64,000 nucleotides of DNA from an uncultured Bacilli bacterium (GCA_934098395.1 CAKOOM010000001.1:340896-404895); one strand, 5' to 3'; positions 275 to 41,516 are shown, numbered from the stretch's first letter. Notes: generated by a model from the sequence alone, not told the origin. Numbers and translations: made by a program.

Positions 275-613
275 ATGGAAAATAAAAATATAAATAAAGA
301 AATTAAAAAATTTTATGATGAAATAATGAAGGGGAACAATAGAGCAGCAATAATGTTTACAGATAATTCCTCATTAATTTATGGAACTGGATTAGAACTA
401 ATAGCTATTTTAACGACAATATTGAAAATAATGAGAAAAAATGGCACTCCTGAAAGTTTACTAGAAAAAGCTTTTGAAATTTCAAAAAAGACAGATGAAG
501 AAATAGAAAAAGGAGAAATAGAAAAAGGTGCATCCAAAAATGTAGTAAAAAATAAGGTTAAAGCAATAAGAGAAATGTTAGATTTTTTGGAGGAAATAGA
601 CAATGAATGGTAA
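275..613 (+). CDS. hypothetical phage protein
   Basis: 112-aa ORF tightly packed with neighbours. Confidence 0.45.
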   Translation: MENKNINKEIKKFYDEIMKGNNRAAIMFTDNSSLIYGTGLELIAILTTILKIMRKNGTPESLLEKAFEISKKTDEEIEKGEIEKGASKNVVKNKVKAIREMLDFLEEIDNEW

Positions 614-2971: not shown

Positions 2972-2982
2972 TGAATTAAAAA

Positions 2983-3435
2983 ATGAATAAAGTGTTTTTA
3001 ATAGGAAGATTATCAAGAGATCCTGAATTAAGACATACTTCAAATAACACACCATTTTGTCAAATAAATGTGGCAATATCAAGACCTGTAGGTCAAGGTA
3101 AAGAGCCTGAAACCGATTTTATAAATGTTGTTGTATGGAATAAACAAGCAGAAAATTTAGTTAAGTATGTTAAAAAAGGAAATCAAATAGCAATTGAAGG
3201 AAGAATTCAAACAAGAAGTTATGATAATGAAGAAGGTAAAAAAGTATATGTAACTGAAGTATTAGCTAATCATGTCGAATTTATCGGAAACAACAGCAAT
3301 AAAACAAATGACAATCAAACACAAACACAAGATAATAAAACTTCATATACTGCCGAGGAAATAGATAATATTGATGATCCATATGATAATTTTGGCAAAA
3401 GAGTAGAAGTGACAGATGATATGCTGCCATTTTAG
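2983..3435 (+). CDS. ssb: single-stranded DNA-binding protein
   Basis: OB-fold N-terminus MNKVFLIGRLSRDPELR...; acidic C-terminal tail ending DDMLPF. Confidence 0.85.
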   Translation: MNKVFLIGRLSRDPELRHTSNNTPFCQINVAISRPVGQGKEPETDFINVVVWNKQAENLVKYVKKGNQIAIEGRIQTRSYDNEEGKKVYVTEVLANHVEFIGNNSNKTNDNQTQTQDNKTSYTAEEIDNIDDPYDNFGKRVEVTDDMLPF

Positions 3436-6565: not shown

Positions 6566-7153
6566 ATGACAAATGAATTGTTAGCAAGAATTGATTTGTT
6601 TGAAAAAGAAAACAAACAATTAAAAGAGAAACTATCTAAAATAGAAACATTAATAATAAACCATAATTGCGATACTGGTGATATTTATTATAAGTATAAT
6701 AGCAGATTTTTAAAAAGTGAATTAAAACAAAGAATATTAGAGATAGTATATGAAGAAGAAAGTGGGAGTAATAAAGCTAAAGATGAAAATAAAGAATTAA
6801 AGAAACAACTTGAAGTAGGAGAAGAACAATATAATGATTTAATAGAAGAAAAAGAGATTTTACAAGAGCAACTATCAATTAAAACTTTACAGTTGGAAGA
6901 ATTAAAGGAACAAGTAAATAAGGGATTATACAATATTTGTATGCCATATACAACTGGTTATAATAAAGCAACGAAAGATAAAGAAACTCAACAAAAAGAG
7001 TTTATAAATTATTTAGAAGATTTAATAAAACAAAATGAAACAGTTGTTGAAGTATCAAAATATGGATTACCTAAAAATTGTTCTAAATTATTAATAGATT
7101 TTTATAAAGAAATTTTACAAAAATATAAAGAAATAATAGGAGATGATAAATAG
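6566..7153 (+). CDS. hypothetical coiled-coil phage protein
   Basis: 195-aa ORF; TAAATG junction. Confidence 0.45.
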   Translation: MTNELLARIDLFEKENKQLKEKLSKIETLIINHNCDTGDIYYKYNSRFLKSELKQRILEIVYEEESGSNKAKDENKELKKQLEVGEEQYNDLIEEKEILQEQLSIKTLQLEELKEQVNKGLYNICMPYTTGYNKATKDKETQQKEFINYLEDLIKQNETVVEVSKYGLPKNCSKLLIDFYKEILQKYKEIIGDDK

Positions 7154-7776
7154 TGATAAAAAAGGAAATATATCCTAAAACAAAAAGAGTTAGCTGTAAA
7201 GGTAATAAAGTATATATTACGGAAAAGTTGGATGGAAGTAATTTAGTATTTTTTAAAAAGAATAATGAATTATATATAGCTCAAAGAAAAAGTATATTTA
7301 AAATAAGTGAATTAGAAGAAGTGAAAGACATTTTATACAAAGGATTATATCAATGGCTGATTGATAATAAAAACGTTTTAATTGATGAATTACATGATAA
7401 CAGTGCTATTTGTGGCGAGTGGCTAGGAATGGGTTGTTTGAAATACAACATTGATGAATTTGACAAGAGATGGTATATGTTTGCAAAAGCAAATATAGAT
7501 GATGATTATAATTTATATAATTTAATTTACAATCATGATTTGTTTATTTATCCATTTGTAAATCAACAAATACCTAATTTTATTGGTGTAGTTCCTGAGG
7601 TAATAGAATTAGTGAATATACCAAATAAGGAACAGTTAGATAGTATTTACGAAAAATATCAAAGCAAAGTAAAAAGAAATGTTGAAGGATTTGTTATCAA
7701 CTACAACAACGATATTACTAAATATGTCAGAATGAAAAATGGTAAATTACAAGAGCATTTTGATAGAGGAGAGTAA
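7153..7776 (+). CDS. RNA-ligase-family nucleotidyltransferase (ATP-dependent RNA/DNA ligase-like, PF09414-type)
   Basis: GTG start. Ligase motifs in order: I TEKLDGSN (KxDGxN), III ICGEWLG, IV EGFVIN, V KYVRMKNGK. Confidence 0.6.
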   Translation: MIKKEIYPKTKRVSCKGNKVYITEKLDGSNLVFFKKNNELYIAQRKSIFKISELEEVKDILYKGLYQWLIDNKNVLIDELHDNSAICGEWLGMGCLKYNIDEFDKRWYMFAKANIDDDYNLYNLIYNHDLFIYPFVNQQIPNFIGVVPEVIELVNIPNKEQLDSIYEKYQSKVKRNVEGFVINYNNDITKYVRMKNGKLQEHFDRGE

Positions 7777-9508: not shown

Positions 9509-9875
9509 AGGTATGAGTCAAAGAGAAGCATATAAAGATGCTTACAATGCTAAATACAAAGATGAAGTTATAGATGTTAGGGCTTGCGAGTTATTTAATT
9601 CTAGTAAGGTTCAGGTAAGGTATAAAGAGATTATGGTTCAATTAGAAGATAAAACTATTATGAGTGCTAAAGAACGTATGAAATGGTTAACCGAAGTTGT
9701 AAAGGGAATACAAACAAATACAACTTATGGCGAAAACGGGCAAGAATACGAAAATGAAGCATATATAAGCGATAAAATGAAAGCAATCGATTTATTAAAT
9801 AAAATGGATGGTCAATATGTTCAAAGATTTGAAGCAGATTTAGATTTCAATATAAGAGTTGAATTAGATGACTAA
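9453..9875 (+). CDS. terS: terminase small subunit
   Basis: AGGAAG RBS; N-terminal LNIKQEKFIQNIVKGMSQREAYKDAYN typical of terS; ATGA overlap with terL. Confidence 0.75.
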   Translation: MIMMALNIKQEKFIQNIVKGMSQREAYKDAYNAKYKDEVIDVRACELFNSSKVQVRYKEIMVQLEDKTIMSAKERMKWLTEVVKGIQTNTTYGENGQEYENEAYISDKMKAIDLLNKMDGQYVQRFEADLDFNIRVELDD

Positions 9876-11370
9876 AGAAATAAAAATATCAATATCGAAA
9901 AAAGTATTTAATGATGTATATATACCTTATTTAGATAATATAAGCAGATATTTGATATTTTATGGTGGCGCTGGTAGTGGAAAGTCTTTCTTTGTTGTTG
10001 AAAGATATATATATAAAATACTTAATTCAAAAATGATGAACCTATTGACAGTTCGTGCTACTGGTAAGAGCAACAGAGATAGTACATTTGCTTTGTTTAA
10101 GCAAGTTATTAATAAATGGCACTTAGGTATGCACTTCAAAATAAATGAAAGTGATCTAAGAATAAAGTGTTTACTTAATGGCAATGAAATAATATTTAGT
10201 GGACTAGATGATGTTGAAAAGTTAAAATCAGTAACTTTTAGCAAAGGAGAACTTACTGATATATGGATAGAAGAAGCTTCTGAAATACTAGAAAGTGATT
10301 TTAATCAATTAGATGTCAGATTAAGAGGTAAAGGAACTAAAAAACAAATAGTTATATCTTTTAATCCAATTGATATTAATCATTGGTTAAAAAAGAAGTT
10401 CTTTGATGTACCAAGAGATAATTTAACTATAGTACATACAACATATAAGGATAATAAGTTCTTAGATGAAGATTATAAGAAGTTACTAGAAAGTTATAAG
10501 TATACTGATGAGTATTATTATAATGTGTACTGCTTAGGTCAATGGGGTGTTCTAGGAAAGACTGTATTTGATGCGAGAGCAGTAAGCAGAAGATTGCAAG
10601 AAATAACTAGACCAATCAAGACTGGTTATTTTGAATATAAATATGATGATACAATGCCTATTGGAAAGAAGATTACTGATGTAAAATGGGTAAACGACGA
10701 AAATGGTTATATAGAACTATATGAATTGCCTAACCTATACAAATATTGTGTAGGTGGTGATACTGCTGGTGATGGCTCTGATTGGTTTACCGGACACGTT
10801 CTTAATGCTAAAACAGGTAAACAAGTTGCAAGGTTAAGACATCAGATGGATGAGGATTTATATGTAAGGCAAATGTATTGTTTAGGCTGGTATTATGCTA
10901 ATAAGAACTTAAAAACTGGTGTAGTAACACCTGCTCTTATGTGTATTGAAAGTAATTTTAGTAGTTTTCCTAATAAAGAATTAGTACGATTAGGTTATCC
11001 TAATATGTTCGTAAGGGAGAAAGAAGATAGATATACAGGTGTAATGGACAAGTCTTATGGATTCAAAACCACTTCATTAACAAGACCTGTTATAATAGCA
11101 GAACTAGTTAAAATAGTTCGTGAAAATGTTGAATTAATAAATGATAAATTAACACTTGAAGAAATGCTAACTTTTGTCAGAAATGAAAAGGGAAGACCTG
11201 AGGCACAGCAAGGAGCACATGATGATTTGGTTATGGGGCTTGCTATAGCCTATTATTCAAGGACACAAGTAGTATTTGATGTTGAACCGATAAAAGTAAG
11301 TCAAGTATTTAACTTCAAGTCAGAAGAGCCACTAGAGGCTGATTATGGAGAGGAGATAGTGATCATATAA
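9868..11370 (+). CDS. terL: terminase large subunit (PBSX / Terminase_6-type)
   Basis: Walker A YGGAGSGKS; 500 aa; conserved C-terminal nuclease Asp residues. Confidence 0.9.
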   Translation: MTKEIKISISKKVFNDVYIPYLDNISRYLIFYGGAGSGKSFFVVERYIYKILNSKMMNLLTVRATGKSNRDSTFALFKQVINKWHLGMHFKINESDLRIKCLLNGNEIIFSGLDDVEKLKSVTFSKGELTDIWIEEASEILESDFNQLDVRLRGKGTKKQIVISFNPIDINHWLKKKFFDVPRDNLTIVHTTYKDNKFLDEDYKKLLESYKYTDEYYYNVYCLGQWGVLGKTVFDARAVSRRLQEITRPIKTGYFEYKYDDTMPIGKKITDVKWVNDENGYIELYELPNLYKYCVGGDTAGDGSDWFTGHVLNAKTGKQVARLRHQMDEDLYVRQMYCLGWYYANKNLKTGVVTPALMCIESNFSSFPNKELVRLGYPNMFVREKEDRYTGVMDKSYGFKTTSLTRPVIIAELVKIVRENVELINDKLTLEEMLTFVRNEKGRPEAQQGAHDDLVMGLAIAYYSRTQVVFDVEPIKVSQVFNFKSEEPLEADYGEEIVII

Positions 11371-11806: not shown

Positions 11807-13516
11807 ATGATGGATTTAAACGAAGTAAAAGAAACTGATATATGGGAGCTATATGAAAGAGGTAGAAATTATAATCGACTAAAAGGCCTATATTCAGATA
11901 CTGATAAAAATTATAGAATGTATAATGGTAATCAATGGGCTGGATTAAAGATCAGCGGAATAGAACCCATTCAATTAAATATAATAAAGCCAATAATTAA
12001 GTATAAAGTCGGAGTAATCAACAATAATATGTATTTACCTGTGTTTAGTGCTGAAAACTTTGAAAATAAAGAGTTTAAAGATGTAGCAAATAAAACCTGT
12101 GAACTTCTTAATAAACTAGCTGCTAAAGTATGGGAAAAAGACAATATGGACTACAAAACAAGAGCAATAAGCAAACATTCTGCTATTAATGATGAGTGCC
12201 CAATTTATGTTGACTATGATGAGAAGGCAAATATGCCACAAAATGAGATATTATCAAAGAACGATGTATATTATGGCAATGAGAACGATTCAGATATACA
12301 GAATCAGCCATATATTTTAATTAAGCATAGAAAACCAGTTATTAATACTATTGAAATGGCTAGATTATCAGGAGTGTCAGAGGACAAACTTAGGTATATA
12401 GTTGGTGATAATGATACTTTTGAAGAAGCTGGAGAAGACTCTAGAGAAGAAAAAGATGATATGGTAACTATTATTACTAAACTATATAAAGAAAATGGTA
12501 CAGTCCATTTTAGTCAAGCAACAAGATATTGTGATATAAAAGAAGACAAAGACACAGGGCTTACACTTTATCCACTAGAGCACATGCTTTGGGAAGAAAA
12601 AGAAGGATATGCTCGAGGAGAAGGTGAAGTCAGATATTTAATACCTAACCAGTTAGAAATTAATAAGACTATAATGAGAAGATTAATATCTGCAAAAACT
12701 ACCGCTTATCCACAAAAAATTGTTGATATATCTAAAATACAAAATCCTAATGCAATAGACAAAATTGGTGGCACTATTAAAGTTAATGGTATAAATGTAG
12801 ATGATGTTAAGAAGGCAATTGGAGTTCTTCAGCCAGCGCAAATGAGTGCAGATGTTGAAAAGGTAATGAATGAATTAATATCTACTACTAGAGAATTAGC
12901 TGGTGCTGGAGATATTGCTACTGGTGATGTTAATCCGGAAAGTGCGAGTGGTAAGGCAATATTGGCAGTACAGCAAGCATCACAGATGCCAGTAACTGAA
13001 CAAACATTGTCATTAAAGACCACTTTAGAGGGATTAGCAAGAATTTGGTTAGATATGTGGAAGACATATGCTACCGATGGCTTAGTAATAGACTATGAAG
13101 AATCCAATCCTGCTACTGGTGAAGTAAGTTCTAGACCAGTAAAAGTACCTTATAGTGTATTACAAGAATTACAAGCAAATGTAAAGATAGATATTACACC
13201 AAAGAGCCCTTATGATAAATATGCTCAAGAATTATCACTTGAGAATATGTTAAAGGCAGGATACTTTACTGCTGAAAGATTAGCAGAACTAGAAGTATAT
13301 GTAAGTCTATTAGATGATGACAGTTCAATGCCTAAATCTAAGTTAGAAGAAGCAATAAAGAAAATGAAAGAATCTCAGCAAAGAATAGCAGATGTTCAGA
13401 CAAAGGCTCAAGAATTGCAAATGAAAGCTAATAAATTTATCGCTAATCAACAAGATATAACTGGCATAGGACAATATGGAAATCAATTAATTAATCAAGC
13501 AATGACTACACAATAG
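11807..13516 (+). CDS. portal protein
   Basis: AGGAGGTGAC RBS; 569 aa, directly downstream of terL. Confidence 0.8.
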   Translation: MMDLNEVKETDIWELYERGRNYNRLKGLYSDTDKNYRMYNGNQWAGLKISGIEPIQLNIIKPIIKYKVGVINNNMYLPVFSAENFENKEFKDVANKTCELLNKLAAKVWEKDNMDYKTRAISKHSAINDECPIYVDYDEKANMPQNEILSKNDVYYGNENDSDIQNQPYILIKHRKPVINTIEMARLSGVSEDKLRYIVGDNDTFEEAGEDSREEKDDMVTIITKLYKENGTVHFSQATRYCDIKEDKDTGLTLYPLEHMLWEEKEGYARGEGEVRYLIPNQLEINKTIMRRLISAKTTAYPQKIVDISKIQNPNAIDKIGGTIKVNGINVDDVKKAIGVLQPAQMSADVEKVMNELISTTRELAGAGDIATGDVNPESASGKAILAVQQASQMPVTEQTLSLKTTLEGLARIWLDMWKTYATDGLVIDYEESNPATGEVSSRPVKVPYSVLQELQANVKIDITPKSPYDKYAQELSLENMLKAGYFTAERLAELEVYVSLLDDDSSMPKSKLEEAIKKMKESQQRIADVQTKAQELQMKANKFIANQQDITGIGQYGNQLINQAMTTQ

Positions 13517-14477: not shown

Positions 14478-15443
14478 ATGAATGATGCAAGACAAACGAT
14501 TTGGCATCAAGGGTATGAAAGAGCCCTAAAGACTATAACTTCATTAAGAAATCATAGCGATTTCAAATATGAAAAAGATACACATAATGCAAGAAAAGTA
14601 ATAATTTTAAATGCAGATAAACCTTTAGTAAGAAAATATACACCAGGAGTTTCAATTGAGAGAGATAAAGCAAGTGTAACTAAAAAAGAATTCGAAATGG
14701 ATCAAATGTATTATTTCAATGTTGGAATAGATCATGTTGATAAAGCACAAACTGTTCCAGGAGCATTAGAAGCAATCTGCGAAGAAGGAGCAATTGCACT
14801 TTCTGAAGAAGGAGACAAATATGTTGCTAAACTAGTTAATGATGGTGTTAATGCTGGTACTGTTGAAGTGGTTGATGGTACATCTGCTACTAAATCAAAT
14901 GCTGTCGAAAAATTAGAAGAAGGCTTTGTTAAATTATATAGAAATAATGTTCCTAAAAACACTGAATTATATTCAGAAAATGATCCAGGATTTTACAGTA
15001 AAATCAGACAAAACTTAACAGAGCTATATACTAACAATGTTGATATGGCTAAGAAAGGTATTGTAGGTAAATATGGTAATGCTTTAATTACTATTGAAAA
15101 CCTTTTACCTAAATTAGATCCAACATATGCTGTTACAACTGATACAGATATTGTTGAAGGCAAAACATATTATACAAGAAGTGGAGAATCAAGTGCTTAT
15201 GTTTATACTGAGGTTACTTCTCCAGCTAAAGCAAGTATAAGTTCTTATTATGAAATTACTGGTTACGGAAAAGTTCTTAATTTCTTAAGAACTAAAAAAG
15301 CTGTTGCATTTGCAGAACAAATTGAAAAAGTAGTTAACTACGAAGTTCAAGATGGCTTTGAAACAGCTCAAAAGGGTTTATATGTGTATGGTGGTCTTTT
15401 AGTAAGACCTAAAGAAATTGTGTGTATCAAGACAAGTCTTTAA
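14478..15443 (+). CDS. major capsid protein (HK97-fold inferred)
   Basis: AAAGGAG RBS; 321 aa after the scaffold gene; strong terminator downstream. Confidence 0.65.
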   Translation: MNDARQTIWHQGYERALKTITSLRNHSDFKYEKDTHNARKVIILNADKPLVRKYTPGVSIERDKASVTKKEFEMDQMYYFNVGIDHVDKAQTVPGALEAICEEGAIALSEEGDKYVAKLVNDGVNAGTVEVVDGTSATKSNAVEKLEEGFVKLYRNNVPKNTELYSENDPGFYSKIRQNLTELYTNNVDMAKKGIVGKYGNALITIENLLPKLDPTYAVTTDTDIVEGKTYYTRSGESSAYVYTEVTSPAKASISSYYEITGYGKVLNFLRTKKAVAFAEQIEKVVNYEVQDGFETAQKGLYVYGGLLVRPKEIVCIKTSL

Positions 15444-15535: not shown

Positions 15536-15946
15536 ATGAAAGTTGAATATTATACATTAAAACCAAGTTTAAAACAGTATTTTGGAAGGAAAGTTAATAA
15601 ATCTTTAACATTTGATGAATGGACTGAAGATAAAAAAGTACATCAGACTTTGAAAGATTTAGAACTTGTAACTGAAATACATGATGAAAGAAAAATGAAA
15701 ATGATAGTTTTAGGAAAAGAAGAAACAATTACTACTGAAGAAATAAGTACTATAAAGCAGAAATTAGCAACTGGAGTGATTTTGATTTGGGATGAACAGC
15801 AAGGGTATATAATCCCACCATATGAAATGGCTACATTAGATGAAATAGAAAAAGATTTGATTGCCATGAAGGATGTATATAGGAGTGATGATAATGACAT
15901 TACTAGAAATGAAGAAAAAAGTATTAAGATTAATCGAGGAAATTAA
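15536..15946 (+). CDS. hypothetical virion / head-completion protein
   Basis: AGGAGG RBS; 136 aa. Confidence 0.45.
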   Translation: MKVEYYTLKPSLKQYFGRKVNKSLTFDEWTEDKKVHQTLKDLELVTEIHDERKMKMIVLGKEETITTEEISTIKQKLATGVILIWDEQQGYIIPPYEMATLDEIEKDLIAMKDVYRSDDNDITRNEEKSIKINRGN

Positions 15947-16448
15947 TGATAAAAGCAAATTATTAACTGATGATCCTGATATAGCAAACAAAATAAATGA
16001 TGTTATAAATCAGATTCAAAATGAAATTGCTAGAATAAAAAAAATACCTGCTAAAGAAGAGTTAGAGGTAACTAAAGGTGATGAGATTGATTTTTCTGAT
16101 ATAGCAAAGGATTTATTTCAAATTAACATTGTTAGAGGAGTTGAAAATGATATCGTAGGTAATACTATTAATTTTTATGGTGATGGTGTTGCTAAGATAT
16201 ATTATTATAAGTATCCTAAACAAATAACTGCTGATACAAAAGATAGTGAGTTTACTTTTGATTTATCAACAGATGTACTTGAAATAATGCCTTATGGTGT
16301 AGCTGGTGATTTACTTAAATCTGATATATCAGCTAGTTATGGACAAGTTTATTCAAATAGATATGAACAAATGTTACAAAGATTAGATCCAAGATTTCAT
16401 ACTGGTAGCATTTATATAGAAGGAGATGACACTTATGAGTTCTTATAG
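15894..16448 (+). CDS. hypothetical virion protein (start moved to the ATG 8 nt after AGGAG; ORF track lists 15873)
   Basis: RBS spacing. Confidence 0.45.
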   Translation: MTLLEMKKKVLRLIEEINDKSKLLTDDPDIANKINDVINQIQNEIARIKKIPAKEELEVTKGDEIDFSDIAKDLFQINIVRGVENDIVGNTINFYGDGVAKIYYYKYPKQITADTKDSEFTFDLSTDVLEIMPYGVAGDLLKSDISASYGQVYSNRYEQMLQRLDPRFHTGSIYIEGDDTYEFL

Positions 16449-18163: not shown

Positions 18164-19231
18164 ATGGCAATTTATGATGTTAATTATGATGATAAGAGAT
18201 TTAAAGATGTTGAGAACGAAAAACAAAGCGAATTAAACAAATATAATGAAACTTATGATAATTTGATAAATGAAAGAAATAATTTTACTAAGGAACAACA
18301 AGATATGGTTGATAGGTGGGAAAATACTCAAAAAGATATTGCTAATAAGAACCTTCAATATCAGAAAGATTTGATAGAACAACAAAGGAAAAAGGCTGAA
18401 CAAGCATATCAAAACGAGGCAAAATCATCCTATATCGACTATCAAAAAGAAGTTGATAAGTATGGTGTTAGTAGAGAAAATGTTGTAAGTAACGGTCTTT
18501 CAAATAGTGGCTATGCTGAAAGCTCCAAAGTTGATATGTATAATACTTATCAAAATAGACTTGGCACTGCTAGAAAAAGCATGCAAGATGCTGCATTAGA
18601 GTTTGATAATGCAATAAGACAGGCACAGTTATCAAATGATGAAACATTAGCACAAAATGCGTTAAAAGCATTACAAGATAAATTAAATATTGCATTGGAA
18701 GGATTTAATTATAAATCAGAACAAGAAAATAATAGATTGAATTGGAATAATACTATTAATAACAATTATTACAATAGATATAAGGATGTTGAGAGTCAAA
18801 TTAATTATGAGAATGAAACCGCTGAAAAAATTAGACAATATAATGAAAATATGGCATATCAAAAAGAACAACAAAGATTAGAACAACAAAGATGGGAACA
18901 AGAAATGGCATATCAAAAACAACAAGATGCTATTGCTAATGCTCAAAAATGGGCTAGTATAAATGCTAGTTATGGTGGTAGTGGTGGAAGTTCATTGACA
19001 GATGGTGGAACAAATGAATTGAGTGGTAAGAATTCTAATTCAAGTTCGAATTCGAATTATACAAAAACAGATGATATTTTTCAAATAAATGGTAAAAATT
19101 ATCCTGTATATAAAGGTAAAGATGGATTTATATATTATTTAAAAGGCAATAGTTATATAAGAATTGCAAACACACGTAAAGGCGGTGGAACAAATTCAGC
19201 TGGTTACGGTGGTAAAAGTGGTGGAAGATAG
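18164..19231 (+). CDS. Q/N-rich virion protein with a Gly-rich C-terminus (internal or core protein candidate)
   Basis: Compositionally biased; coiled-coil; C-terminal GGSGG repeats. Confidence 0.45.
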   Translation: MAIYDVNYDDKRFKDVENEKQSELNKYNETYDNLINERNNFTKEQQDMVDRWENTQKDIANKNLQYQKDLIEQQRKKAEQAYQNEAKSSYIDYQKEVDKYGVSRENVVSNGLSNSGYAESSKVDMYNTYQNRLGTARKSMQDAALEFDNAIRQAQLSNDETLAQNALKALQDKLNIALEGFNYKSEQENNRLNWNNTINNNYYNRYKDVESQINYENETAEKIRQYNENMAYQKEQQRLEQQRWEQEMAYQKQQDAIANAQKWASINASYGGSGGSSLTDGGTNELSGKNSNSSSNSNYTKTDDIFQINGKNYPVYKGKDGFIYYLKGNSYIRIANTRKGGGTNSAGYGGKSGGR

Positions 19232-19242
19232 GAGTAGTTTTT

Positions 19243-22200
19243 ATGGGACATTTGTTTATAGCTAATTCAAACGGAAGTATATCAAAGCAAAAAATAGAAA
19301 AGAAAACAAAAATTATAAAAAACGCTGATGGAACATTAGATTTAAAATACTCTGGAATGCAAAGAATAAAAAATAGTATCAAATCCACAGGTAATTTAGT
19401 TACTAAAGGTGCTATAAAGGAAGCTGAAAGTCAATTAGACTGGATGAATAAAGCTAACTCAAAAGTTATGAGCGGTGCATATAATTTACTTGGAAGAAAA
19501 GATTTATCTCAAAGACAAACAGAAAATAGTAATGACTTTATAAAAAAAGATCTTACTCAAAAGTTATGGAATAAAACAGGATTACAAAATTCTCTAGAAA
19601 ATCAAGCAATAAATGGTTCAATAATAAAGGAAAATAATATTGGTGGTCAAATAGCATATGGCTTAGGACAACAGGGTGTAAGAATTGCTGAAGGAGCATT
19701 ATTGAGTGGCGGAGCAAATATTGGAAAAATAGATGACTTAGATAATTTAAGTAAATTTAAAAAAATTGGAGTTCAATTAGCGATAGATGCTCCTAGTAAT
19801 GTTGCTATGTATGCAAGTTCTTATGGTAGTGGATATGAGCAAGCTTTACAAGAAGGTGCTACTACTAAACAAGCAGAAAAATATGCTAAAGGAAGTGCGG
19901 CTGTAGAATTTGCTACAGAAATGATGACCGGCGGAATTCCTGGAACTAATGGTAAAGGATTTTTAGATTATGGTGCTGAGAAAGTAATAGATAAAATATC
20001 TAAAAAGGCAAGTTCAAAAGTAGCCAATATAGCTCTTAAATATGGATACCATATTGTTGGTGAAGGATTCGAAGAAGCAATGTCTGAAATTCTTAATCCA
20101 TATTTAAAAAATGCAACATATAGTTCTAACGAAAAAATAGATTGGAATCAAGTATGGAATGCTGCTGTTGTAGGCGGTGTTATTGGCGGAATATTGGAAG
20201 CACCAGGAACTGTTAGTGAATTAAAGTATAACAAAATAAACAGAGATGAAAAATCACAAATTCAAGAAAATAATACAAACACTACAAATAATATAAATCA
20301 AAATATTAATGATAAATCACATAATATCAATGTTCGTGGTGAGAATTTAGAACAAATACAAAGTGAAATACAACAATTAGAAGTTTTAGAAAAAAACAAC
20401 AATATAACTAAACAACAAGAACAATATTTAAATGAATTAAAAAAACAGTTAAATGACATTCAAAATCAAAATACTGATACAGATTTTTCTTTACCAACAA
20501 GAGAAAGTTTACCTACAGTTCAAGATATAGTTCAGCAAGAAAAAACAAATCAAAGTAATATTAATTTGCCAGTATATAATCAGCAAAGTAATGTTAACAA
20601 TTCTGATAAGGCTATTTTGCCTACTGTGAACGATTTTAATAGTTCTAATGCAAATATGCCTGCTAGTGATATAAAGGTTGACATGACTAAAATAAAGCCT
20701 GAAATATTAAATGATATTAAAGGTTTTAAATTAGGAGATCCTAATATTGAAGGATACAAAGGCAGTTATATAAAAACAATGTTAAATGAAGTTGGTATAA
20801 AAGTGCCTACTGCTATGAATTATGTAAGTGAAGTAAGGCCAGATATGAGTTTTACTACAACTAAAGATTTAACTAGACAACAATATGCTTCAATTGGAAA
20901 TGCTCTTCAAAAATTAAGAAGTGTAGATGTGACTAGTGTTAATAATGCTAATTATAGTATTCCAATAGGCAATTATCAATATGTTAAAAGTTCTAATGCA
21001 AATATAAATGAATTAAGAAGAACCGCCAGCATGTATTTAAATAATACTGCTAGATCGAACAACACTATTAGGCTACTAGAAAATATAATAAAAGATAGGA
21101 ATTATATAATAAGATTCAATCCTAATATAACTAATGAACAAGGTGTACCTGTTAACGGATTAATTACAAAAGAAAATGGTAAAACTATAATTGAATTAAA
21201 TCCTAATGCTGATAATTATGTTGAGTTTTTGGTTGTTCATGAAATAACTCATGACATAGCAACAAAAGAAATGAAGGAATTAATACTTGATTATGCTAAA
21301 CAAGATCCTGAGTTTGAAAAATCATTAGAATCATTAAAGGAAAGGTATAAAACTAATGATGTATCAGATGAAGTAGTGGCAGATGTATGTGGTGAATTGT
21401 TTGGCAATAGAGAATTCATTCAATCAGTTGTTGAAAAGAAACCAAATATATTTAAGAAAATACTAAATAATATTAGAAAATTAGCAGAAAAAATTAAGGG
21501 TACTGGTGCTAATGAGTATGTAAGTTTTGTTGAGAAGTTAAAAACTATGTGGGAAGATACCTATTATAGTAATAGAAGTAATCTTAATGAAACCAAATAT
21601 ATGATGACTAGTATTAAAGGAATGAAAAATGGTATCAAAGTTAATAATAAATATCAGGACATTAAAAATAGATATGATTTTGCATTAAAATTAGAAAATA
21701 CGGGCAATTATACAAACGAAGATATCAGAAAAAAGACAGGATGGTTTAAGGATAATAAAGGAAATTGGAAATTTGAAATATCCGATACAAATACATATAT
21801 CATTAAAAATCCTATAAAAAATACAAATTATGATTTATCTGATATTTTTGAGGCTAAAACATTATATGAAATGTATCCTAATTTGAAAAAAGTTTCTGTA
21901 AACTTTGGCGAAATAAAGGGAAATGCTTCTTACAATTCGAAAACAAAAACAATCAAAGTATCAAACAAATTAATTAATAATAATGACAGTTTAAGAGGCA
22001 CATTACTTCATGAAATACAACACTATATTCAAAGCGAAGAAAATTTGCCAACCGGAACAACGATTTTATTTGGAAATGAACAATATGCAAATAATCTTGG
22101 TGAAATAGAAGCTGCCGATACCAAAAATAGGAGAAATTTAACTGTTGCAGAGAGAAAAAAATCTATTCCAGAAAGTGCTAAATTAAATCCTACTCATCCA

Positions 22201-25200
22201 AATCGTGATGCAATTTTGAATCATAAAAGGAATACTATTGAAAAAATTGCAGAAAAATTATATAATTTACTTGGTGATAAGGCAAATGAAGTTTTTGAAG
22301 AAAACGATATTGAAACCACTAAAGAAAATCTTTCGAAAAATAGTAAGAATGATTCCAGTGGATTGGGGAACAGACGAAAATATGATGTAGAAGAACTAGA
22401 TAATAGTTCTTTTCTTTTGAAAAATAATGAAGGTAATGATATTGATATCACTAATTTAAAAGAGAACGATTCGATGTTGAGAATGCACTGTAAAAGAGTT
22501 TATGATAAAAACACGGTAAAAGCATATAGAGGTGTGAGCGAAAATACAGGATCAAATGGTGCATTTTATGGATTGGGATTATATACAACGTTGGATAAAA
22601 ATTATGCAAAAAAATATGGGGAAGTATTTGAAGTAGATAATGATTTATTGCCAAATAATCCTTTAATGTTTAAGACACAAAATGATTTTCAAATTTGGGA
22701 ACAACAATTAGCACAAGAATTAAATATAAGAAAAAATAAATTATATTCGAATAATTATGGCGTGGAACAATATATAAAAAGACTTGGTTATGATGGTTTA
22801 ATGATTGGCAGTGGTAAAGATACAGATTTAATTTCTTTTAAAGATGTATCAAAAAAATATTCTCAAAGTGCTAAAGAGTGGAATGAGTATCTTAAAGAAA
22901 ACTTTCCATCAGCTGGAACTAAAACTAAAATGTCTGACATTAAATTACCTGTTAGAGACGATATAGGAAGTAGCTCTAATAAAAACAGAGTTTTAAATCC
23001 AAACGAAATATCAAAATCAACTAAAAAAAATACTAAAAATGAATCCGAAAAATTGGCAGAAATATTAAGAGAAAAACCTACTACTATTGAAGAAAAAGAT
23101 AATTGGTTAAGAAAACTTGCTACTATTAAGTTTATTGATAAAGGATACTATGTTGATAAACTGGCAAGAAAAGTTAAAAATAAAGAGTTAAGTTCTAAGT
23201 ACGATTATTCACTTTTATCTAATGGAATTGCTAATCAAATAATAGGAAATGGTAGATTCAATGATAAAGGCAATAAAATAGGTAAAGGATTATATGAGAT
23301 ATTTGAGCCTATCGAGAATAGTGGCTTGTTAGATGATTTTAGTAAATATATGTATCATAAACACAATATTGATAGAATGAGTTTACAAAATAGATTTAAT
23401 GAAGCAAATAAAGCTGTATTTGGGGATAGTATGACTTCTGATATGTCAGAAAAAGTAGTTAATGAATATGAAACTAAATATCCTGAATTTGAATCTTGGG
23501 CTGATGATATTTACGAATATAATAATGCTAATTTAGAAATGCTTGTTAAATATGGAGTATTATCAAAAGATAGTATGGAATATTACAATAAAAAATATCC
23601 ACATTATGTACCTACCATTAGAGAACAAACTAAAACAAAAACTCAAATGGATTTCTTATTAGGTAAAAAAGCAAGTGTTAACAATCCTGTAAAAAAAGCT
23701 AAAGGTGGAAATGGTAACATAATTCCATTAAAAGATGCAATGGCACTTAGAACTATGCAAACTGTTAACTCTGCTTTAAGAAATAATTTTGGACTTGAGT
23801 TGTTAAATAGTATTGAAACCGAACAAATAAGAAATCAGGAAAATATTGATAATATTGTTGAAGAAATTAATAGTGATGATTTATTAATTAAAAGTAGTGA
23901 GACTAGTCCTGCGACTTTAACTGTTTTTGATAAAGGTGAAAAAGTAACTTTTGAAATATCAGATGAAATATATGAGGCATTGAAACCTAGTAACATTAAA
24001 ACATTTAAGTTTTTAAATAAATTAAATAATATTAGAAGGGGATTGCTTACTGAATATAATCCGACATTTATGATAACTAATCCTTTAAAAGATATTCAAG
24101 ATGGTAGTATTAACAGTAAACATCCTAAATTATTTATTAAAAATTTACCAGAAGCAATTATGCAAATAAAAAATAATGGACAATATAAACAACTATATAT
24201 TGCAAATGGTGGTTCATATGAAACATATTTCAATTATAATACTGGAACTAACATAGTACCTAGCAAATTAGACAAAATAACTCCATTAAAGAAGATTAGT
24301 GAAATAAATGAGGTTATAGAAATGGCACCTAGGCTTGCTGAGTTTATTTCTTCCATTGAGGCAGGAGATAGTATAGAAACTGCTATGTATAATGCTTCCG
24401 AAATAACTACTAACTTTAAAAGAGGAGGAGATATAACTAAAACTCTTGATAGAAATGGTGTTACATTCTTAAATGCAGGAGTACAAGGTGCTGTAAAACA
24501 GGTAAGAAATGTTCAAGAGGCAAGAGTTGAAAGTATTAAAGGAATTACTAAATTGGCAGTTAGATGGACTATTGCTGGACTTACCCCAGCACTTCTTATG
24601 GGAATGCTTTGGGGTGATGATGACGAATATGAGGAATTATCTGATTATATTAAAAATAATTATTATATAATTGGTAAATATGGCAATGGAGAATTTATTA
24701 AGATTCCAAAAGGTAGAGTAGTTAGTGTTCTGCAAAAATTCTTTCAAAATTTAATAGATGGAGCAAATGGAAAAAAAATAGATTTGGAAGGTCTTGCAGA
24801 TTTGATTGAAAATAATTTACTACCATCCGATCCAAATGAAAGTAGTTTAATTGCTCCTATAAAACAAGCAATTAATAACGAAACTTGGTATGGTGGTGAT
24901 TTAGTTCCTACGAGACTTCAAAACTTGCCTAATGCAGAACAATATGATGAAACAACTGATAGTATTAGTATTTGGTTGGGGAAAAAGTTAAATATAAGTC
25001 CATATAAAATAAATTATGTACTAGATCAATATGCTGGGGCTATAGGAGATTATACATTACCTTATTTAACTCAAGCAGCCGAAAGTGGCAGTGACAGTTT
25101 TACAGGAAAATTATTAGCACCAGTTAAAGATAAATTTACTGTAGATAGCAATCTTAAAAATCAAAACATTTCTGATTTTTATAGTTTAAGCGAAGAATTG

Positions 25201-25818
25201 ACTAAAAAATCTAATAGTTCTACTGCTACAGATGAGGATATACTAAAAAATAAGTATATTAATTCTGTTAAAAGTGAAATTAGTAAATTATATGCTAAAA
25301 AGAGAGAAATACAAAGTTCTTCCTTAAAAGATAGCGAAAAGTATAATCAAAGTAAGGAAATTCAAAAACAAATCAACGAATTATCAAAGAATGCCATAAA
25401 TGGTTATGATAAGGTTGAGTTATATGATAATTATGCTATTATCAGTGATAAAGAATATTATAAAAATAGTAATAATGAGTGGACTAAAGTAGATAAAACA
25501 AGTACAAAATATAAAACTGCAAAATTAATTACCAAATATAATGTTTACTTATCATGTGATAATGAAATAAAAAAGTTAAAAAAACAAAATAATAATTCTA
25601 ATAGTAGAAAGATAGCAATTATTAAATATATTAATTCCTTGGATTTAAGTGTTCCTCAAAAAGCTATGCTTATTAAAATGAATTACTCTTCTTATAATAG
25701 TTATAACAATCAAATAATTAATTATGTGAATAATCAAAATATTTCTTTAGATGAAAAAAAGGAAATACTTGAAGAACTGGGATTCAAGGTAAGAAATGGT
25801 AAGGTGTATTCGAAATGA
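19243..25818 (+). CDS. giant multidomain virion protein, 2191 aa (polyvalent or injected-protein-like, or atypical tape measure)
   Basis: HEITH at 21238-21252 (aa 666-670). HEIQH at 22009-22023 (aa 923-927); HEIQHYIQ resembles the DUF4157-type zincin signature. Gly-rich hydrophobic segment near aa 300. YRGVS...GLYTT segment near aa 1095-1180. Hydrophobic TIAGLTPALLMGMLWG segment near aa 1760. Confidence 0.6.
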   Translation: MGHLFIANSNGSISKQKIEKKTKIIKNADGTLDLKYSGMQRIKNSIKSTGNLVTKGAIKEAESQLDWMNKANSKVMSGAYNLLGRKDLSQRQTENSNDFIKKDLTQKLWNKTGLQNSLENQAINGSIIKENNIGGQIAYGLGQQGVRIAEGALLSGGANIGKIDDLDNLSKFKKIGVQLAIDAPSNVAMYASSYGSGYEQALQEGATTKQAEKYAKGSAAVEFATEMMTGGIPGTNGKGFLDYGAEKVIDKISKKASSKVANIALKYGYHIVGEGFEEAMSEILNPYLKNATYSSNEKIDWNQVWNAAVVGGVIGGILEAPGTVSELKYNKINRDEKSQIQENNTNTTNNINQNINDKSHNINVRGENLEQIQSEIQQLEVLEKNNNITKQQEQYLNELKKQLNDIQNQNTDTDFSLPTRESLPTVQDIVQQEKTNQSNINLPVYNQQSNVNNSDKAILPTVNDFNSSNANMPASDIKVDMTKIKPEILNDIKGFKLGDPNIEGYKGSYIKTMLNEVGIKVPTAMNYVSEVRPDMSFTTTKDLTRQQYASIGNALQKLRSVDVTSVNNANYSIPIGNYQYVKSSNANINELRRTASMYLNNTARSNNTIRLLENIIKDRNYIIRFNPNITNEQGVPVNGLITKENGKTIIELNPNADNYVEFLVVHEITHDIATKEMKELILDYAKQDPEFEKSLESLKERYKTNDVSDEVVADVCGELFGNREFIQSVVEKKPNIFKKILNNIRKLAEKIKGTGANEYVSFVEKLKTMWEDTYYSNRSNLNETKYMMTSIKGMKNGIKVNNKYQDIKNRYDFALKLENTGNYTNEDIRKKTGWFKDNKGNWKFEISDTNTYIIKNPIKNTNYDLSDIFEAKTLYEMYPNLKKVSVNFGEIKGNASYNSKTKTIKVSNKLINNNDSLRGTLLHEIQHYIQSEENLPTGTTILFGNEQYANNLGEIEAADTKNRRNLTVAERKKSIPESAKLNPTHPNRDAILNHKRNTIEKIAEKLYNLLGDKANEVFEENDIETTKENLSKNSKNDSSGLGNRRKYDVEELDNSSFLLKNNEGNDIDITNLKENDSMLRMHCKRVYDKNTVKAYRGVSENTGSNGAFYGLGLYTTLDKNYAKKYGEVFEVDNDLLPNNPLMFKTQNDFQIWEQQLAQELNIRKNKLYSNNYGVEQYIKRLGYDGLMIGSGKDTDLISFKDVSKKYSQSAKEWNEYLKENFPSAGTKTKMSDIKLPVRDDIGSSSNKNRVLNPNEISKSTKKNTKNESEKLAEILREKPTTIEEKDNWLRKLATIKFIDKGYYVDKLARKVKNKELSSKYDYSLLSNGIANQIIGNGRFNDKGNKIGKGLYEIFEPIENSGLLDDFSKYMYHKHNIDRMSLQNRFNEANKAVFGDSMTSDMSEKVVNEYETKYPEFESWADDIYEYNNANLEMLVKYGVLSKDSMEYYNKKYPHYVPTIREQTKTKTQMDFLLGKKASVNNPVKKAKGGNGNIIPLKDAMALRTMQTVNSALRNNFGLELLNSIETEQIRNQENIDNIVEEINSDDLLIKSSETSPATLTVFDKGEKVTFEISDEIYEALKPSNIKTFKFLNKLNNIRRGLLTEYNPTFMITNPLKDIQDGSINSKHPKLFIKNLPEAIMQIKNNGQYKQLYIANGGSYETYFNYNTGTNIVPSKLDKITPLKKISEINEVIEMAPRLAEFISSIEAGDSIETAMYNASEITTNFKRGGDITKTLDRNGVTFLNAGVQGAVKQVRNVQEARVESIKGITKLAVRWTIAGLTPALLMGMLWGDDDEYEELSDYIKNNYYIIGKYGNGEFIKIPKGRVVSVLQKFFQNLIDGANGKKIDLEGLADLIENNLLPSDPNESSLIAPIKQAINNETWYGGDLVPTRLQNLPNAEQYDETTDSISIWLGKKLNISPYKINYVLDQYAGAIGDYTLPYLTQAAESGSDSFTGKLLAPVKDKFTVDSNLKNQNISDFYSLSEELTKKSNSSTATDEDILKNKYINSVKSEISKLYAKKREIQSSSLKDSEKYNQSKEIQKQINELSKNAINGYDKVELYDNYAIISDKEYYKNSNNEWTKVDKTSTKYKTAKLITKYNVYLSCDNEIKKLKKQNNNSNSRKIAIIKYINSLDLSVPQKAMLIKMNYSSYNSYNNQIINYVNNQNISLDEKKEILEELGFKVRNGKVYSK

Positions 25819-27458
25819 TAAACAAAAGAGATATAAATAAGTTACGAACACCAGAAGATTTAGAAAGAAGATATAATCTTAAAGATATTTTCAAGTTAAA
25901 AGAAAACTATGAATTACAAAAAAATGGACTCAATAAAGTTGAAAATGAATTAAATAATTTTGTTATTGCAACTGGAAAAAACTTAAAAGAACTTCAAGAC
26001 CAGGTAGATGGAAACATTACTACCTGGTTTTATTCTGGAGTTCCTACAGATAATAATGAACCCGCTAAAAATTGGACTACTGATAATGAAAAAAACAATC
26101 ATTTAGGTGATCTTTATTATGATAAAGAAACTGGTTATGCTTATAGATATTCACTTGATAATGAAATTTATGATTGGATAAAAATTACTGATACTGATGT
26201 AACACAAGCTTTAGCAATAGCAAATACAGCTAAGGACACTGCTGATAGTAAAAGAAGAGTGTTTATTGTTCAACCATCACCACCATATGATTGTGGGGAT
26301 TTATGGCTTAAGGATGAAGAATTATATAGATGTCAAACTACTAAAACAAAAGATGAAATATTTGAAGAAAATGATTGGATAATAGCTACTAAGTATACTG
26401 ATGATACAAAAGCAAATCAAGTTGGGGAAAATCTAACAATATTAAGCGGTACTGTTACCGAAATAAGAAAAGATGTAGACAAATTAGATACTACTATGAC
26501 TAATACTACTAAACTAGTTGATGAACAAGGCAAAACTATTGGGACACTTGAAACAAAACAAAGTCAAACTGAGCAAACAGTGGAGGAAATATCAAATTCT
26601 GTTTCATCTGTTGGTACAAGGGTTACAACAATAGAAAATTCAGTACCAAAATATCAAACTGAACTAGATATATACAACATAACAATACCTGTTGATAGTG
26701 AACTGAAACCTCTAGAAAACAAAGACTATTTAGTTAGTTATAGCACTAAATTTGAAGGTGCAGAAGTAGAATCAACAGTTAGTTCTCAAAGTGAGAATAC
26801 TGGTATTACATTTGGATTACCAAATAATAAAATAACCTTATCAGTTCTAACAAGTGGTGCTATTACAAGTTTAAGTAATGAATTTGTAATAGATTTCGAA
26901 TATGAAAAAGATAATACTACTTATAATGATTCCAAAAAATTAGTAGTGGATTTATTAATAGTTGTGGATGATGAATTAAATGATTTGCAAAATCAAATCA
27001 ATGACACTAATAAAGATTTGAATAATAACTATACCAACAACACAGAACTAGACCAAAAACTAGAAAATCAAAAGCAAACTATAACAGAAGAATTTAGCAC
27101 AAGGATCACTCAAACTAAATCGGAATGGCAAGCAAGTGTAATTGAATACATAAATACTAATGGTGTAGAAAAATTTGTTAATACTTTGGTAACAATTGAT
27201 ATTGATGGTTTAAAACTATCTAAAAGCGATGAGGACATAGTTTCTTTGTTAAATAACAAAGGTCTGTATGTTAGTGATGGTAAATTGAGGGAAGATTTAG
27301 CTAATTTGCTTATGAAAGTAGATAGAACTGGTGCTTATTTAAAGTTACTTGAAATATTAGGAACTATAAAAGAACAAGGGATTATTCAAAAGGAAAAAAT
27401 AACTGATGATGAATTTGGAGAGTGTCAAGCATGGTATTGGATAGGGAGTGATAATTAA
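25815..27458 (+). CDS. tail fibre / coiled-coil fibre protein
   Basis: TTWFYSGVPT..N.PA..W N-terminal motif common in Firmicute phage fibre proteins; long central coiled coil. Confidence 0.5.
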   Translation: MINKRDINKLRTPEDLERRYNLKDIFKLKENYELQKNGLNKVENELNNFVIATGKNLKELQDQVDGNITTWFYSGVPTDNNEPAKNWTTDNEKNNHLGDLYYDKETGYAYRYSLDNEIYDWIKITDTDVTQALAIANTAKDTADSKRRVFIVQPSPPYDCGDLWLKDEELYRCQTTKTKDEIFEENDWIIATKYTDDTKANQVGENLTILSGTVTEIRKDVDKLDTTMTNTTKLVDEQGKTIGTLETKQSQTEQTVEEISNSVSSVGTRVTTIENSVPKYQTELDIYNITIPVDSELKPLENKDYLVSYSTKFEGAEVESTVSSQSENTGITFGLPNNKITLSVLTSGAITSLSNEFVIDFEYEKDNTTYNDSKKLVVDLLIVVDDELNDLQNQINDTNKDLNNNYTNNTELDQKLENQKQTITEEFSTRITQTKSEWQASVIEYINTNGVEKFVNTLVTIDIDGLKLSKSDEDIVSLLNNKGLYVSDGKLREDLANLLMKVDRTGAYLKLLEILGTIKEQGIIQKEKITDDEFGECQAWYWIGSDN

Positions 27459-29660: not shown

Positions 29661-29854
29661 TGAAAATCAAAGAAAGAATAGCAAAATTAATTGATTTAAA
29701 GAGTATTCTATCACTAATTGTTGTATTATCTTATACAATTATGTGTTTCAAAGGAATAGTAGAGGCAGATTATAAAGATTTGGTAATAATGATAATGACA
29801 TTTTATTTCGCAAGTAAAGTAGAAAAGAAAGGAAATGATAGTAATGAAATGTAG
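29660..29854 (+). CDS. holin (64 aa, two transmembrane segments)
   Basis: Two hydrophobic segments; directly precedes the endolysin. Confidence 0.55.
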   Translation: MKIKERIAKLIDLKSILSLIVVLSYTIMCFKGIVEADYKDLVIMIMTFYFASKVEKKGNDSNEM

Positions 29855-30569
29855 AGTATTAGAAAGTGGAATTTGTGAAGTAACACAAGAATATAAAGGA
29901 GCACAGCATGGCGGGATTGATGTTGTAAATAAAGGTTATACATTAGGAAATATTGTAGCACATACTGAAGGGCAAGTTGTTGAAGTAAGAAATAATTGTA
30001 ATTCTTTTGAGCCTAACGGAAGTTATGGTAATTATGTTAAAATTAAACATGATAATGGATACTATACTTTATACGCACACATGGCATATAACACTGTAAA
30101 AGTATCTAAAGGTCAAAGAGTATCTAAAGGACAATTACTTGGATACATGGGTGCTACAGGTACTGCTTATGGCGGTCATTTGCACTTTGAAGTAAGAAAT
30201 GAAAACAATATAAGAATTAATCCTACCGAGTATTTGGAAAAAGATTTATTTACAAAAAAAGTTAATAAATCAGTAGATGAATTGGCTAAAGAAGTTATAG
30301 CTGGTAAATACGGTAATGGTGAAGAAAGAAAAAAAACTTTAGGAGATAGATATAGTGAGGTACAAGCAAGAGTTAATGAAATCCTAACACCAGCACAAAA
30401 AACAAGTGTGAATATATTAGATTTAGTAAAAAAGACTATTAGAGGAGACTTCGGTAATGGTGATGCAAGAAAGAATGCTCTAGGTTCTAACTATGCTGAG
30501 GTTCAAAGACAAGTGAATCTTAATTTCCAAAATGGAACTACAAGCTGGGATAATATAAGATTATATTAA
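29844..30569 (+). CDS. endolysin: M23 peptidase domain plus two CW_7 (Cpl-7-like) cell-wall-binding repeats
   Basis: M23 motifs HGGIDV ... HLHFEV; two GNG..R+..LG..Y.EVQ..VN repeats. Confidence 0.8.
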   Translation: MKCRVLESGICEVTQEYKGAQHGGIDVVNKGYTLGNIVAHTEGQVVEVRNNCNSFEPNGSYGNYVKIKHDNGYYTLYAHMAYNTVKVSKGQRVSKGQLLGYMGATGTAYGGHLHFEVRNENNIRINPTEYLEKDLFTKKVNKSVDELAKEVIAGKYGNGEERKKTLGDRYSEVQARVNEILTPAQKTSVNILDLVKKTIRGDFGNGDARKNALGSNYAEVQRQVNLNFQNGTTSWDNIRLY

Positions 30570-41442: not shown

Positions 41443-41516
41443 GGACCTATAGCCAAGTGGTAAGGCATGGGACTGCAACTCCCTGATCGTTGGTTCAAAT
41501 CCGACTGGGTCCTCCA
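41443..41516 (+). tRNA. tRNA-Cys (anticodon GCA), CCA encoded
   Basis: Hand fold. Acceptor GGACCTA/TGGGTCC with one G-U pair; D-loop contains GG; anticodon loop CTGCAAC; T-arm GTTGG-TTCAAAT-CCGAC; discriminator T, then CCA. Confidence 0.85.

Follow-up and report, generated by a model that had tools for sequence, protein, structure and literature searches.

A probable polyvalent protein with two zincin-like domains and a divergent ADP-ribosyltransferase-like module in a podovirus-type prophage of an uncultured Bacilli bacterium

What is the 6.6-kb gene that stands in the structural operon of a prophage at the place where a first-pass annotation would have looked for a tape measure? The question is raised by a stretch of 64,000 nt from an uncultured Bacilli bacterium (GCA_934098395.1 CAKOOM010000001.1:340896-404895, here called the window), in which a single open reading frame (ORF) at positions 19243-25818 (+) encodes a giant protein of 2191 amino acids (aa), as the ORF list and the translation confirm. 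We conclude, with a probability of roughly 75 %, that it is a phage-type polyvalent protein, probably packaged in the capsid and expelled into the cell with the DNA by a short-tailed temperate phage.

The sequence marks that had drawn attention to this protein are present. The Gly-rich hydrophobic segment seen near aa 300 lies at aa 307-325 (AAVVGGVIGGILEAPGTVS) and the one seen near aa 1760 at aa 1771-1789, these being its two most hydrophobic 19-mers, while HEITH occupies aa 666-670, HEIQHYIQ aa 923-930, and YRGVS and GLYTT begin at aa 1095 and 1112. With only 14 His residues in the whole protein, about 0.007 HExxH motifs would be expected from its composition, and two are observed.

Family membership and phage type

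The family assignment is carried by two domains that pass their Pfam thresholds, LPD38 at aa 1793-1948 (94.9 bits, E 8.7e-27) and LPD23 (PF18838) at aa 817-850 (31.7 bits, E 1.3e-7), the cut-off being 27 bits for each, so the profile searches return more than tape-measure or coiled-coil matches. LPD families define the polyvalent proteins, and LPD38 is restricted to those of phage type; the zincin metallopeptidase (MPTase) is the commonest hub domain of polyvalent proteins, and more than one copy is found in about 8 % of those that carry it (Iyer, Burroughs, Anand, de Souza and Aravind 2017, PMC5512222). In the protein studied here several unrelated effector or enzyme domains are joined in one polypeptide, namely two zincin-like domains, an ADP-ribosyltransferase (ART)-like module, LPD23 and LPD38. 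A Foldseek comparison of the AlphaFold2 model of aa 575-1215 with BFVD returned 21 matches at E <= 1e-3, nearly all of them annotated as polyvalent proteins. Together with the presence of LPD38 relatives in virions, these results support the proposal of the first-pass annotation that the protein is polyvalent and injected; packaging is suggested here by analogy with those relatives, and injection is probable.

By sequence similarity the giant protein is a member of a large family. With aa 480-1215 as the query, exhaustive HMMER searching yielded 2746 clusters (50 % identity) at E <= 1e-3, 207 of them at E <= 1e-30, and most of the 150 matches listed are proteins of 2000-2800 aa. Among PHROGs the single match is phrog_14770 (E 1.9e-28), a profile of 3427 positions, to whose C-terminal end the giant protein aligns. 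PADLOC and NCBIfam scans of the protein gave no matches, a search of PDB sequences with the single protein gave none either, and the same search with the A1 profile gave Gln-rich noise alone (SNF5). At least 22 public contigs from human-gut metagenomes, with lengths of up to 486 kb, carry the exact protein, and just one species-representative genome contains a relative (locus L007, Bacilli bacterium metagenome-assembled genome HGM10836, 50 % identity over aa 185-2189). Despite these metagenome contigs, the host lineage of the prophage seems thinly covered by reference genomes.

The type of phage bears directly on the question of the tape measure. The giant gene lies in the morphogenesis region of the prophage, with terminase, portal, capsid and adaptor genes upstream and tail protein and endolysin genes downstream. 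The matches of the portal and of a 576-aa structural protein in tblastn searches are Bacillus megaterium podophages and uncultured faecal phage records only, and the sole cultured relatives of the portal, the 576-aa protein and the C-terminal part of the giant protein are the B. megaterium phages Page, Pony, Palmer, Pascal, Pavlov and Pookie, which have been described as podophages, in the case of Page with electron microscopy. A megablast comparison of the structural module with 50,697 phage records gave no match. By its gene content and relatives the prophage is a short-tailed, podovirus-type (Pagevirus-like) temperate phage: the P22-like portal, the SU10-type adaptor and the podophage relatives all indicate a short tail, for which no tape measure is expected.

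It had been noted correctly that the giant gene follows two mid-sized proteins, since the 576-aa protein and a 355-aa protein directly precede it, and that no separate tape measure, tube or sheath gene is visible. Neither these families nor tape-measure chaperones were detected across the morphogenesis module in Pfam, PHROGs and NCBIfam scans. The statement that the gene sits where a tape measure normally would has to be given up, because in a podovirus-type module tape measure, tube and sheath are not expected.

Zincin-like domains and the transferase-like module

The conservation of the two HExxH sites was followed in an alignment of 109 diverse segments from relatives. In domain 1, H666, E667 and H670 are kept in 101 of about 102 relatives and E710 in 96 %, and Y702, E710, D714 and Y774 each reach at least 83 %. 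In domain 2, H923 is kept in 91/104, E924 in 96/104 and H927 in 89/103 relatives, Q930, E933 and E954 in about 85 %, and the HExxH site is degenerate in about 8 %. The AlphaFold2 model of aa 575-1215, close to the range of aa 600-1250 singled out for modelling in the first-pass annotation, was built with 40 diverse relatives and has a mean predicted local distance difference test score (pLDDT) of 77.6, with values of about 90 over domain 2. In both domains it predicts three beta strands followed by the HExxH helix, with E710 and E954 on later helices; strands, then an HExxH helix and a Glu on a later helix, make up the zincin arrangement.

The two domains also resemble each other, with an hhalign probability of 83 % (E 8e-6 for this single comparison) over the strands and the HExxH helix. 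The weak matches of domain 1, obtained with diverse sequences, are all to zincin families (Peptidase_M78/IrrE, E 0.024; M48, E 0.12; DUF6782, E 0.13), and domain 2 has sub-threshold Pfam matches to SprT-like (E 7.7e-5) and MPTase-PolyVal (E 1.2e-3). Measured against the MPTase-PolyVal model (PF18818), domain 2 reaches 16.4-19.4 bits at a cut-off of 27.5 and domain 1 is unmatched. Foldseek of the giant-protein model against the PDB gave no significant match, to a solved zincin or otherwise. Judged by the predicted fold, both HExxH domains are very probably zincin-like and uncaptured by current Pfam models. The paired motifs, earlier taken for those of metalloproteases, do behave like zincin active sites in their conservation, in the downstream Glu and in the predicted sheet-then-helix topology. 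A second suggestion, that HEIQHYIQ is of the DUF4157 type, is rejected: the segment shares just the short pattern HExxHxxQ, and no PF13699 match was found in aa 851-1150 at E <= 5 or in the whole protein at E <= 1.

The YRGVS...GLYTT stretch had been compared loosely with ADP-ribosyltransferases of the R-S-E type. Of the 120 closest homologues only about 12 contain the module to which it belongs, but so do a dozen or so distinct clusters of the representative search, and 17 of the 18 sequences aligned retain the module's motifs YRG, GLGLYTT, NP and GYDG. When its profile was aligned by hhalign with that of the ART-PolyVal cassettes carried by relatives, the probability was 96.6 % (E 5.5e-10, 96-125 columns), and two zincin profiles used as negative controls stayed below 1 %. 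In the active site of ART-PolyVal, the His lies on strand 1, the Tyr on strand 2 and the Asp on strand 5 (Iyer et al. 2017, PMC5512222). In the hhalign alignment R1096 falls on the catalytic His, Y1114 on the Tyr and D1184 on the Asp, and all three residues are placed on beta strands in the AlphaFold2 model (pLDDT mostly 84-93). The Tyr and the Asp are conserved, and the position of the His is Arg in 17/18 sequences.

Profile comparison thus places the stretch in the ADP-ribosyltransferase superfamily, as a divergent ART-PolyVal of the H-Y-D lineage in which Arg replaces His. The earlier comparison therefore stands for the superfamily and falls for the R-S-E type, for which no ExE was seen by eye and no Pfam match was obtained. 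An R-S-E exotoxin of the ADPrib_exo_Tox type was likewise considered and rejected. The Arg is present, LYTT stands at the place of S-T-S, and the conserved acidic residue that aligns with the catalytic position is the GYDG Asp. For the module, no significant ART match was obtained among solved structures. The only PDB sequences touched by its family profile are PARP15 catalytic domains, at Y-G-x-G-x-Y (E 0.13-0.35), and diphtheria toxin and MbcT are further weak matches. Two relatives of extreme length, P0177 (5812 aa) and P0262 (7040 aa), hold roughly ten ART-PolyVal-like copies each according to jackhmmer, an unusual tandem amplification.

Mosaic architecture and gene neighbourhood

A BLAST comparison with the 120 closest homologues, complemented by counts among 228 long relatives, shows at the level of sequence that the relatives are mosaics, which swap middle effector modules as cassettes at fixed junctions. 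Sharp breakpoints are shared at about aa 570-588, 789-813, 1057-1069, 1205-1211, 1256-1263, 2083-2089 and 2120. The variable positions hold nothing, a 116-aa unknown module, MuF_C, a canonical ART-PolyVal, LPD3 or PBECR3; amid this exchange the joint at aa 1205-1263 stays constant in most listed homologues and the last 72 residues in essentially all. Two short motifs accompany the junctions. The pattern [ED]LxN[SG]SF occurs in 122 of the 228 long relatives (in 121 once, in 1 twice) as against 1 in shuffled sequences, and xKY[SM] occurs 153 times as against about 30 in shuffles, an enrichment of about five-fold. Both may be recombination joints, protease sites or the two at once. Junction motifs were also noted at cassette borders of the relatives P0008, P0020, P0043 and P0053.

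Giant proteins from podophages of Thalassomonas, Vibrio and Bacillus are 22-25 % identical to the C-terminal block, and LPD38 lies 110-250 residues before the C-terminus in Page_20, VvAW1 gp01, JC1 gp69 and the protein described here. Just 76 of the 228 long relatives contain the LPD38-type block; in the remaining two thirds its place is taken by an unrelated block, 880-1140 aa long, in which a hydrophobic segment lies about 400 residues before the end. At least two alternative chassis blocks appear to exist. The relatives with the alternative block (P0045, P0049, P0053, P0061, P0087, P0121 and others) keep the joint and the C-terminal 72 residues. An AlphaFold2 model of aa 1205-2191, built with 31 mostly close homologues, is largely helical, with a mean pLDDT of 48 and a predicted template modelling score of 0.32. 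At the other end of the protein, a segment comparable to the hydrophobic aa 307-325 is kept in distant relatives, and Pfam and PHROGs gave no family match for the N-terminal Gly-rich region. For the Asn/Gln-rich linker that follows, the sole Pfam match is a sub-threshold one of coiled-coil type, judged spurious.

The positions of these features and of the neighbouring genes are given in Table 1.

Table 1. Features of the giant gene and its surroundings, in nucleotide positions of the window
Feature	Position	Strand	Detail or basis
Large terminase	9868-11370	+	PHROGs and Pfam
P22-like portal (PF16510)	11807-13516	+	PHROGs and Pfam
Major capsid protein	14478-15443	+	PHROGs and Pfam
SU10-type adaptor (PF24175)	15873-16448	+	PHROGs and Pfam
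Page_15-like structural protein, 576 aa	16426-18156	+	PHROGs and Pfam
355-aa unknown protein	18164-19231	+	directly upstream of giant gene
Ribosome-binding site AGGAG	19230..19234	+	read from sequence; 8 nt 5' of the ATG of the giant gene
Giant gene, 2191-aa protein read as phage-type polyvalent	19243..25818	+	ORF list, translation; ATG start
N-terminal Gly-rich region, aa ~140-330	19660..20232	+	hydrophobic segment aa 307-325 (nt 20161-20217), hydropathy 1.39
Asn/Gln-rich low-complexity linker, aa ~331-560	20233..20922	+	composition per 100 aa
Zincin-like domain 1, aa ~590-780	21010..21582	+	HEITH nt 21238-21252; candidate third ligand E710
xKYS motifs, aa 784-787 and aa 1204-1207	21592-21603 and 22852-22863	+	cassette borders
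LPD23, aa 817-850	21691..21792	+	Pfam PF18838
Zincin-like domain 2, aa ~885-965	21895..22137	+	HEIQH aa 923-927 (nt 22009-22023); conserved Q930, E933, E954
Junction motif ELDNSSF, aa 1051-1057	22393..22413	+	ends predicted disordered linker (pLDDT < 50), directly upstream of variable cassette
Divergent ART-PolyVal-like module, aa ~1090-1203	22510..22851	+	R1096 (YRG), Y1114 (LYTT), D1184 (GYDG)
Conserved joint, aa 1205-1263	22855..23031	+	BLAST coverage profile and breakpoints; common to most relatives whatever the flanking cassettes
C-terminal block, aa 1264-2089, mostly helical (predicted)	23032..25509	+	hydrophobic aa 1771-1789 (nt 24553-24609)
LPD38, aa 1793-1948	24619-25086	+	inside C-terminal block; Pfam
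C-terminal tail, aa 2120-2191	25600..25815	+	coverage profile; present in 119/120 listed homologues
547-aa coiled-coil tail protein	25815-27458	+	ATGA overlap with giant gene
DUF859 tail protein, 621 aa	27458-29323	+	small ORFs then follow
M23+CW_7 endolysin	29835-30569	+	downstream module

The small terminase subunit gene likewise lies upstream of the giant gene (PHROGs and Pfam). As read from the sequence, the giant gene's stop codon and the start codon of the gene after it share the letters ATGA, which indicates that the giant gene is translationally coupled within the structural operon. The product of that next gene, the 547-aa protein, matches over aa 29-212 a domain without a Pfam family that forms part of several giant 'tail protein' PHROGs (phrog_21973, E 2.6e-52); behind it comes a coiled coil that resembles the needle protein gp26 of P22 very weakly (E 0.68).

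The early region of the prophage (window 603-3435 and 7153-7776, +) encodes RecT, SSB, a metallo-beta-lactamase-fold protein, an RNA ligase family protein and a DUF1351-like protein, the last by a sub-threshold Pfam match. The right end of the prophage lies near 30.6-31.9 kb, adjoining a minus-strand CotJB gene. The host genes to the right of the endolysin, CotJB, SepF, DivIVA, a ClpB-like ATPase, PriA and BipA, indicate that the prophage resides in a spore-forming, low-GC Firmicute. The host region (window ~30600-64000) has a very strong GC skew of 0.4-0.5 and contains a tRNA-Cys at 41443-41516.

Functional readings and relation to known systems

If the giant protein is a packaged polyvalent protein, its constant C-terminal part, formed by the joint, the block and the tail, could by analogy serve as a chassis for its entry into the capsid and its exit by way of portal and tail, and the hydrophobic segments of this part may engage the membrane as the protein is ejected. 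Either zincin, or the pair, would then cut the polyprotein at its linkers, host proteins, or both, and the transferase-like module, once released, could use NAD+ to modify a target in the host within the first minutes of infection, perhaps a defence or core-machinery component. A more specific version of this scheme, to which we give a low probability, makes the giant protein a self-processing polyprotein whose tandem zincins cut at xKYS (784, 1204) and ELDNSSF (1051) and which after injection releases an Arg-type ART-PolyVal variant, the joint, block and tail being a general cargo chassis of podoviruses. Were it correct, the hypothesis of 2017 that MPTases process polyvalent proteins could be tested at defined sites, and the Arg-type ART-PolyVal enzyme would be previously undescribed.

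Several points weigh against a packaged and injected polyvalent protein of this kind. Neither zincin-like domain attains any Pfam threshold, and the ART-like module (aa 1060-1215) has no Pfam match at E <= 10, ART-PolyVal (PF18760) included; for contrast, the ART-PolyVal model scores 57.8 bits on the cassette of the relative P0020. As two thirds of the long relatives are without the LPD38-type block, LPD38 is not a universal packaging element. The hydrophobic segments are only moderately hydrophobic (about 1.4-1.5), and because the C-terminal block was modelled poorly (pLDDT 48), a role as chassis or conduit is without structural support. We infer the function of this block from its context, and packaging, ejection, processing, catalysis and targets by analogy.

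Other explanations of the locus have to be set beside this one. The giant protein might be mainly a structural ejection protein, forming a conduit for DNA through the Gram-positive wall and membrane, with zincins that act on the envelope or on its own maturation and with no anti-defence role. The authors of the phi24B study proposed the same role for gp47, the virion RNA polymerase (vRNAP) of N4 has a large helical C-terminal domain beside an HExxH subdomain, and phage PTXU04 needs an LPD38-only protein in order to infect efficiently; the long, helical and poorly modelled C-terminal block with its hydrophobic segment is also what would be expected of ejection proteins that change conformation. 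A purely structural role is hard to reconcile, however, with a conserved ART-like module and with the RNase, MuF_C, LPD3 and ART cassettes that relatives freely exchange, and Pfam found no peptidoglycan hydrolase domain in the giant protein. We regard such a protein devoid of effector function as unlikely, and the conduit and effector roles are not mutually exclusive. An assignment as a ruler resembling a tape measure, or as its functional replacement, would agree with a very large, partly helical protein encoded in the tail region of the structural operon and with the lack of a separate tape measure in the module. It is made extremely improbable by the portal, the adaptor and the exclusively podophage character of the cultured relatives, by the lack of any tape-measure family match to the giant protein at E <= 1, and by the four genes that alone separate the capsid gene from the giant gene, none of which matches a tube, terminator or tape-measure chaperone. 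Moreover, globular enzyme-like domains, predicted with a pLDDT of about 90, fill the middle of the protein.

The swapping of cassettes behind a conserved junction motif resembles polymorphic toxin systems, and a family of MuF polymorphic toxins has reportedly been described in temperate phages, so a phage-borne toxin of the MuF-associated kind, aimed at competing bacteria and not at the host of the phage itself, was also weighed. We consider it very unlikely, and a secreted polymorphic toxin is rejected: the cassettes that vary lie inside the protein and not at its C-terminus, no small immunity-like gene stands behind the giant gene, whose neighbour encodes a tail protein, and Pfam detected no MuF head-morphogenesis domain in the giant protein. 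A polyvalent protein delivered with the phage DNA thus remains our preferred interpretation.

According to a prediction of 2017, polyvalent proteins deliver many activities against the host together; few of them have been studied, and among those studied hardly any belong to Gram-positive gut phages. The locus described here is a compact, well-delimited example, which offers concrete residues and candidate sites for the study of zincin processing and transferase targets. The tandem zincin core missed by Pfam, the Arg-type ART-PolyVal variant and the defined junction motifs of the cassettes are mildly new. For annotators, the lesson is that the tail type should be checked before a giant gene in the tail region is called a tape measure.

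The giant protein agrees with the polyvalent proteins of Iyer et al. (2017) in being a giant polypeptide encoded in a phage morphogenesis region, with domains of the zincin MPTase, ART and LPD kinds; it differs in zincin-like domains that stay below the MPTase-PolyVal threshold and in the Arg that stands for the catalytic His of its ART-like module. Among individual phages, it resembles JC1 gp69 (4515 aa), the DarB-like protein of Bcep22-like podoviruses, and VvAW1 gp01 (3640 aa), annotated as "DarB-like", in having LPD38 near the C-terminus and in being the product of the last large gene of the structural module. JC1 gp69 was represented by 51 unique peptides when purified virions were analysed by mass spectrometry. 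Unlike the protein of the Firmicute prophage, with its two zincin-like domains and ART-like module, these giants belong to phages of Gram-negative hosts and carry methylase, SNF2-type helicase, lytic transglycosylase or LPD3 payloads, the methylase and SNF2-type helicase being those of VvAW1 gp01.

The phi24B protein gp47 (2811 aa; LPD5, LPD1, LPD38, MuF-C) is, by its description, likewise a giant with LPD38 from a temperate podovirus; virions contain it in abundance, the external cryo-electron microscopy map does not show it, and it has been proposed to be an ejection protein, whereas its other payload domains and its Gram-negative host set it apart. The LPD38-only protein of PTXU04 mentioned above is PTXU04_00025. 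The closest cultured relatives of the C-terminal block are Page gp20 (Page_20, 1679 aa), from a phage of a Gram-positive host, and proteins related to it, with about 23 % identity over aa 1427-1784 of the giant protein; the LPD38 of Page_20 lies at aa 1395-1566 and is its sole Pfam domain at E <= 0.001. In the B. megaterium podophages nothing matched the zincin and ART region.

The vRNAP of coliphage N4 is also a giant encapsidated protein that is ejected, in which a zincin-like HExxH subdomain stands beside a helical C-terminal domain of about 110 kDa without structural relatives; the protein described here differs in having no RNA polymerase module and no similarity to vRNAP detectable in searches of PDB sequences. 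T4 Alt is a packaged and injected ADP-ribosyltransferase that modifies host proteins, and its Arg-type first motif and its concept are common with the giant protein. Alt is a stand-alone R-S-E enzyme of a myovirus, whereas the module described here is related to ART-PolyVal and would be embedded in a polyprotein.

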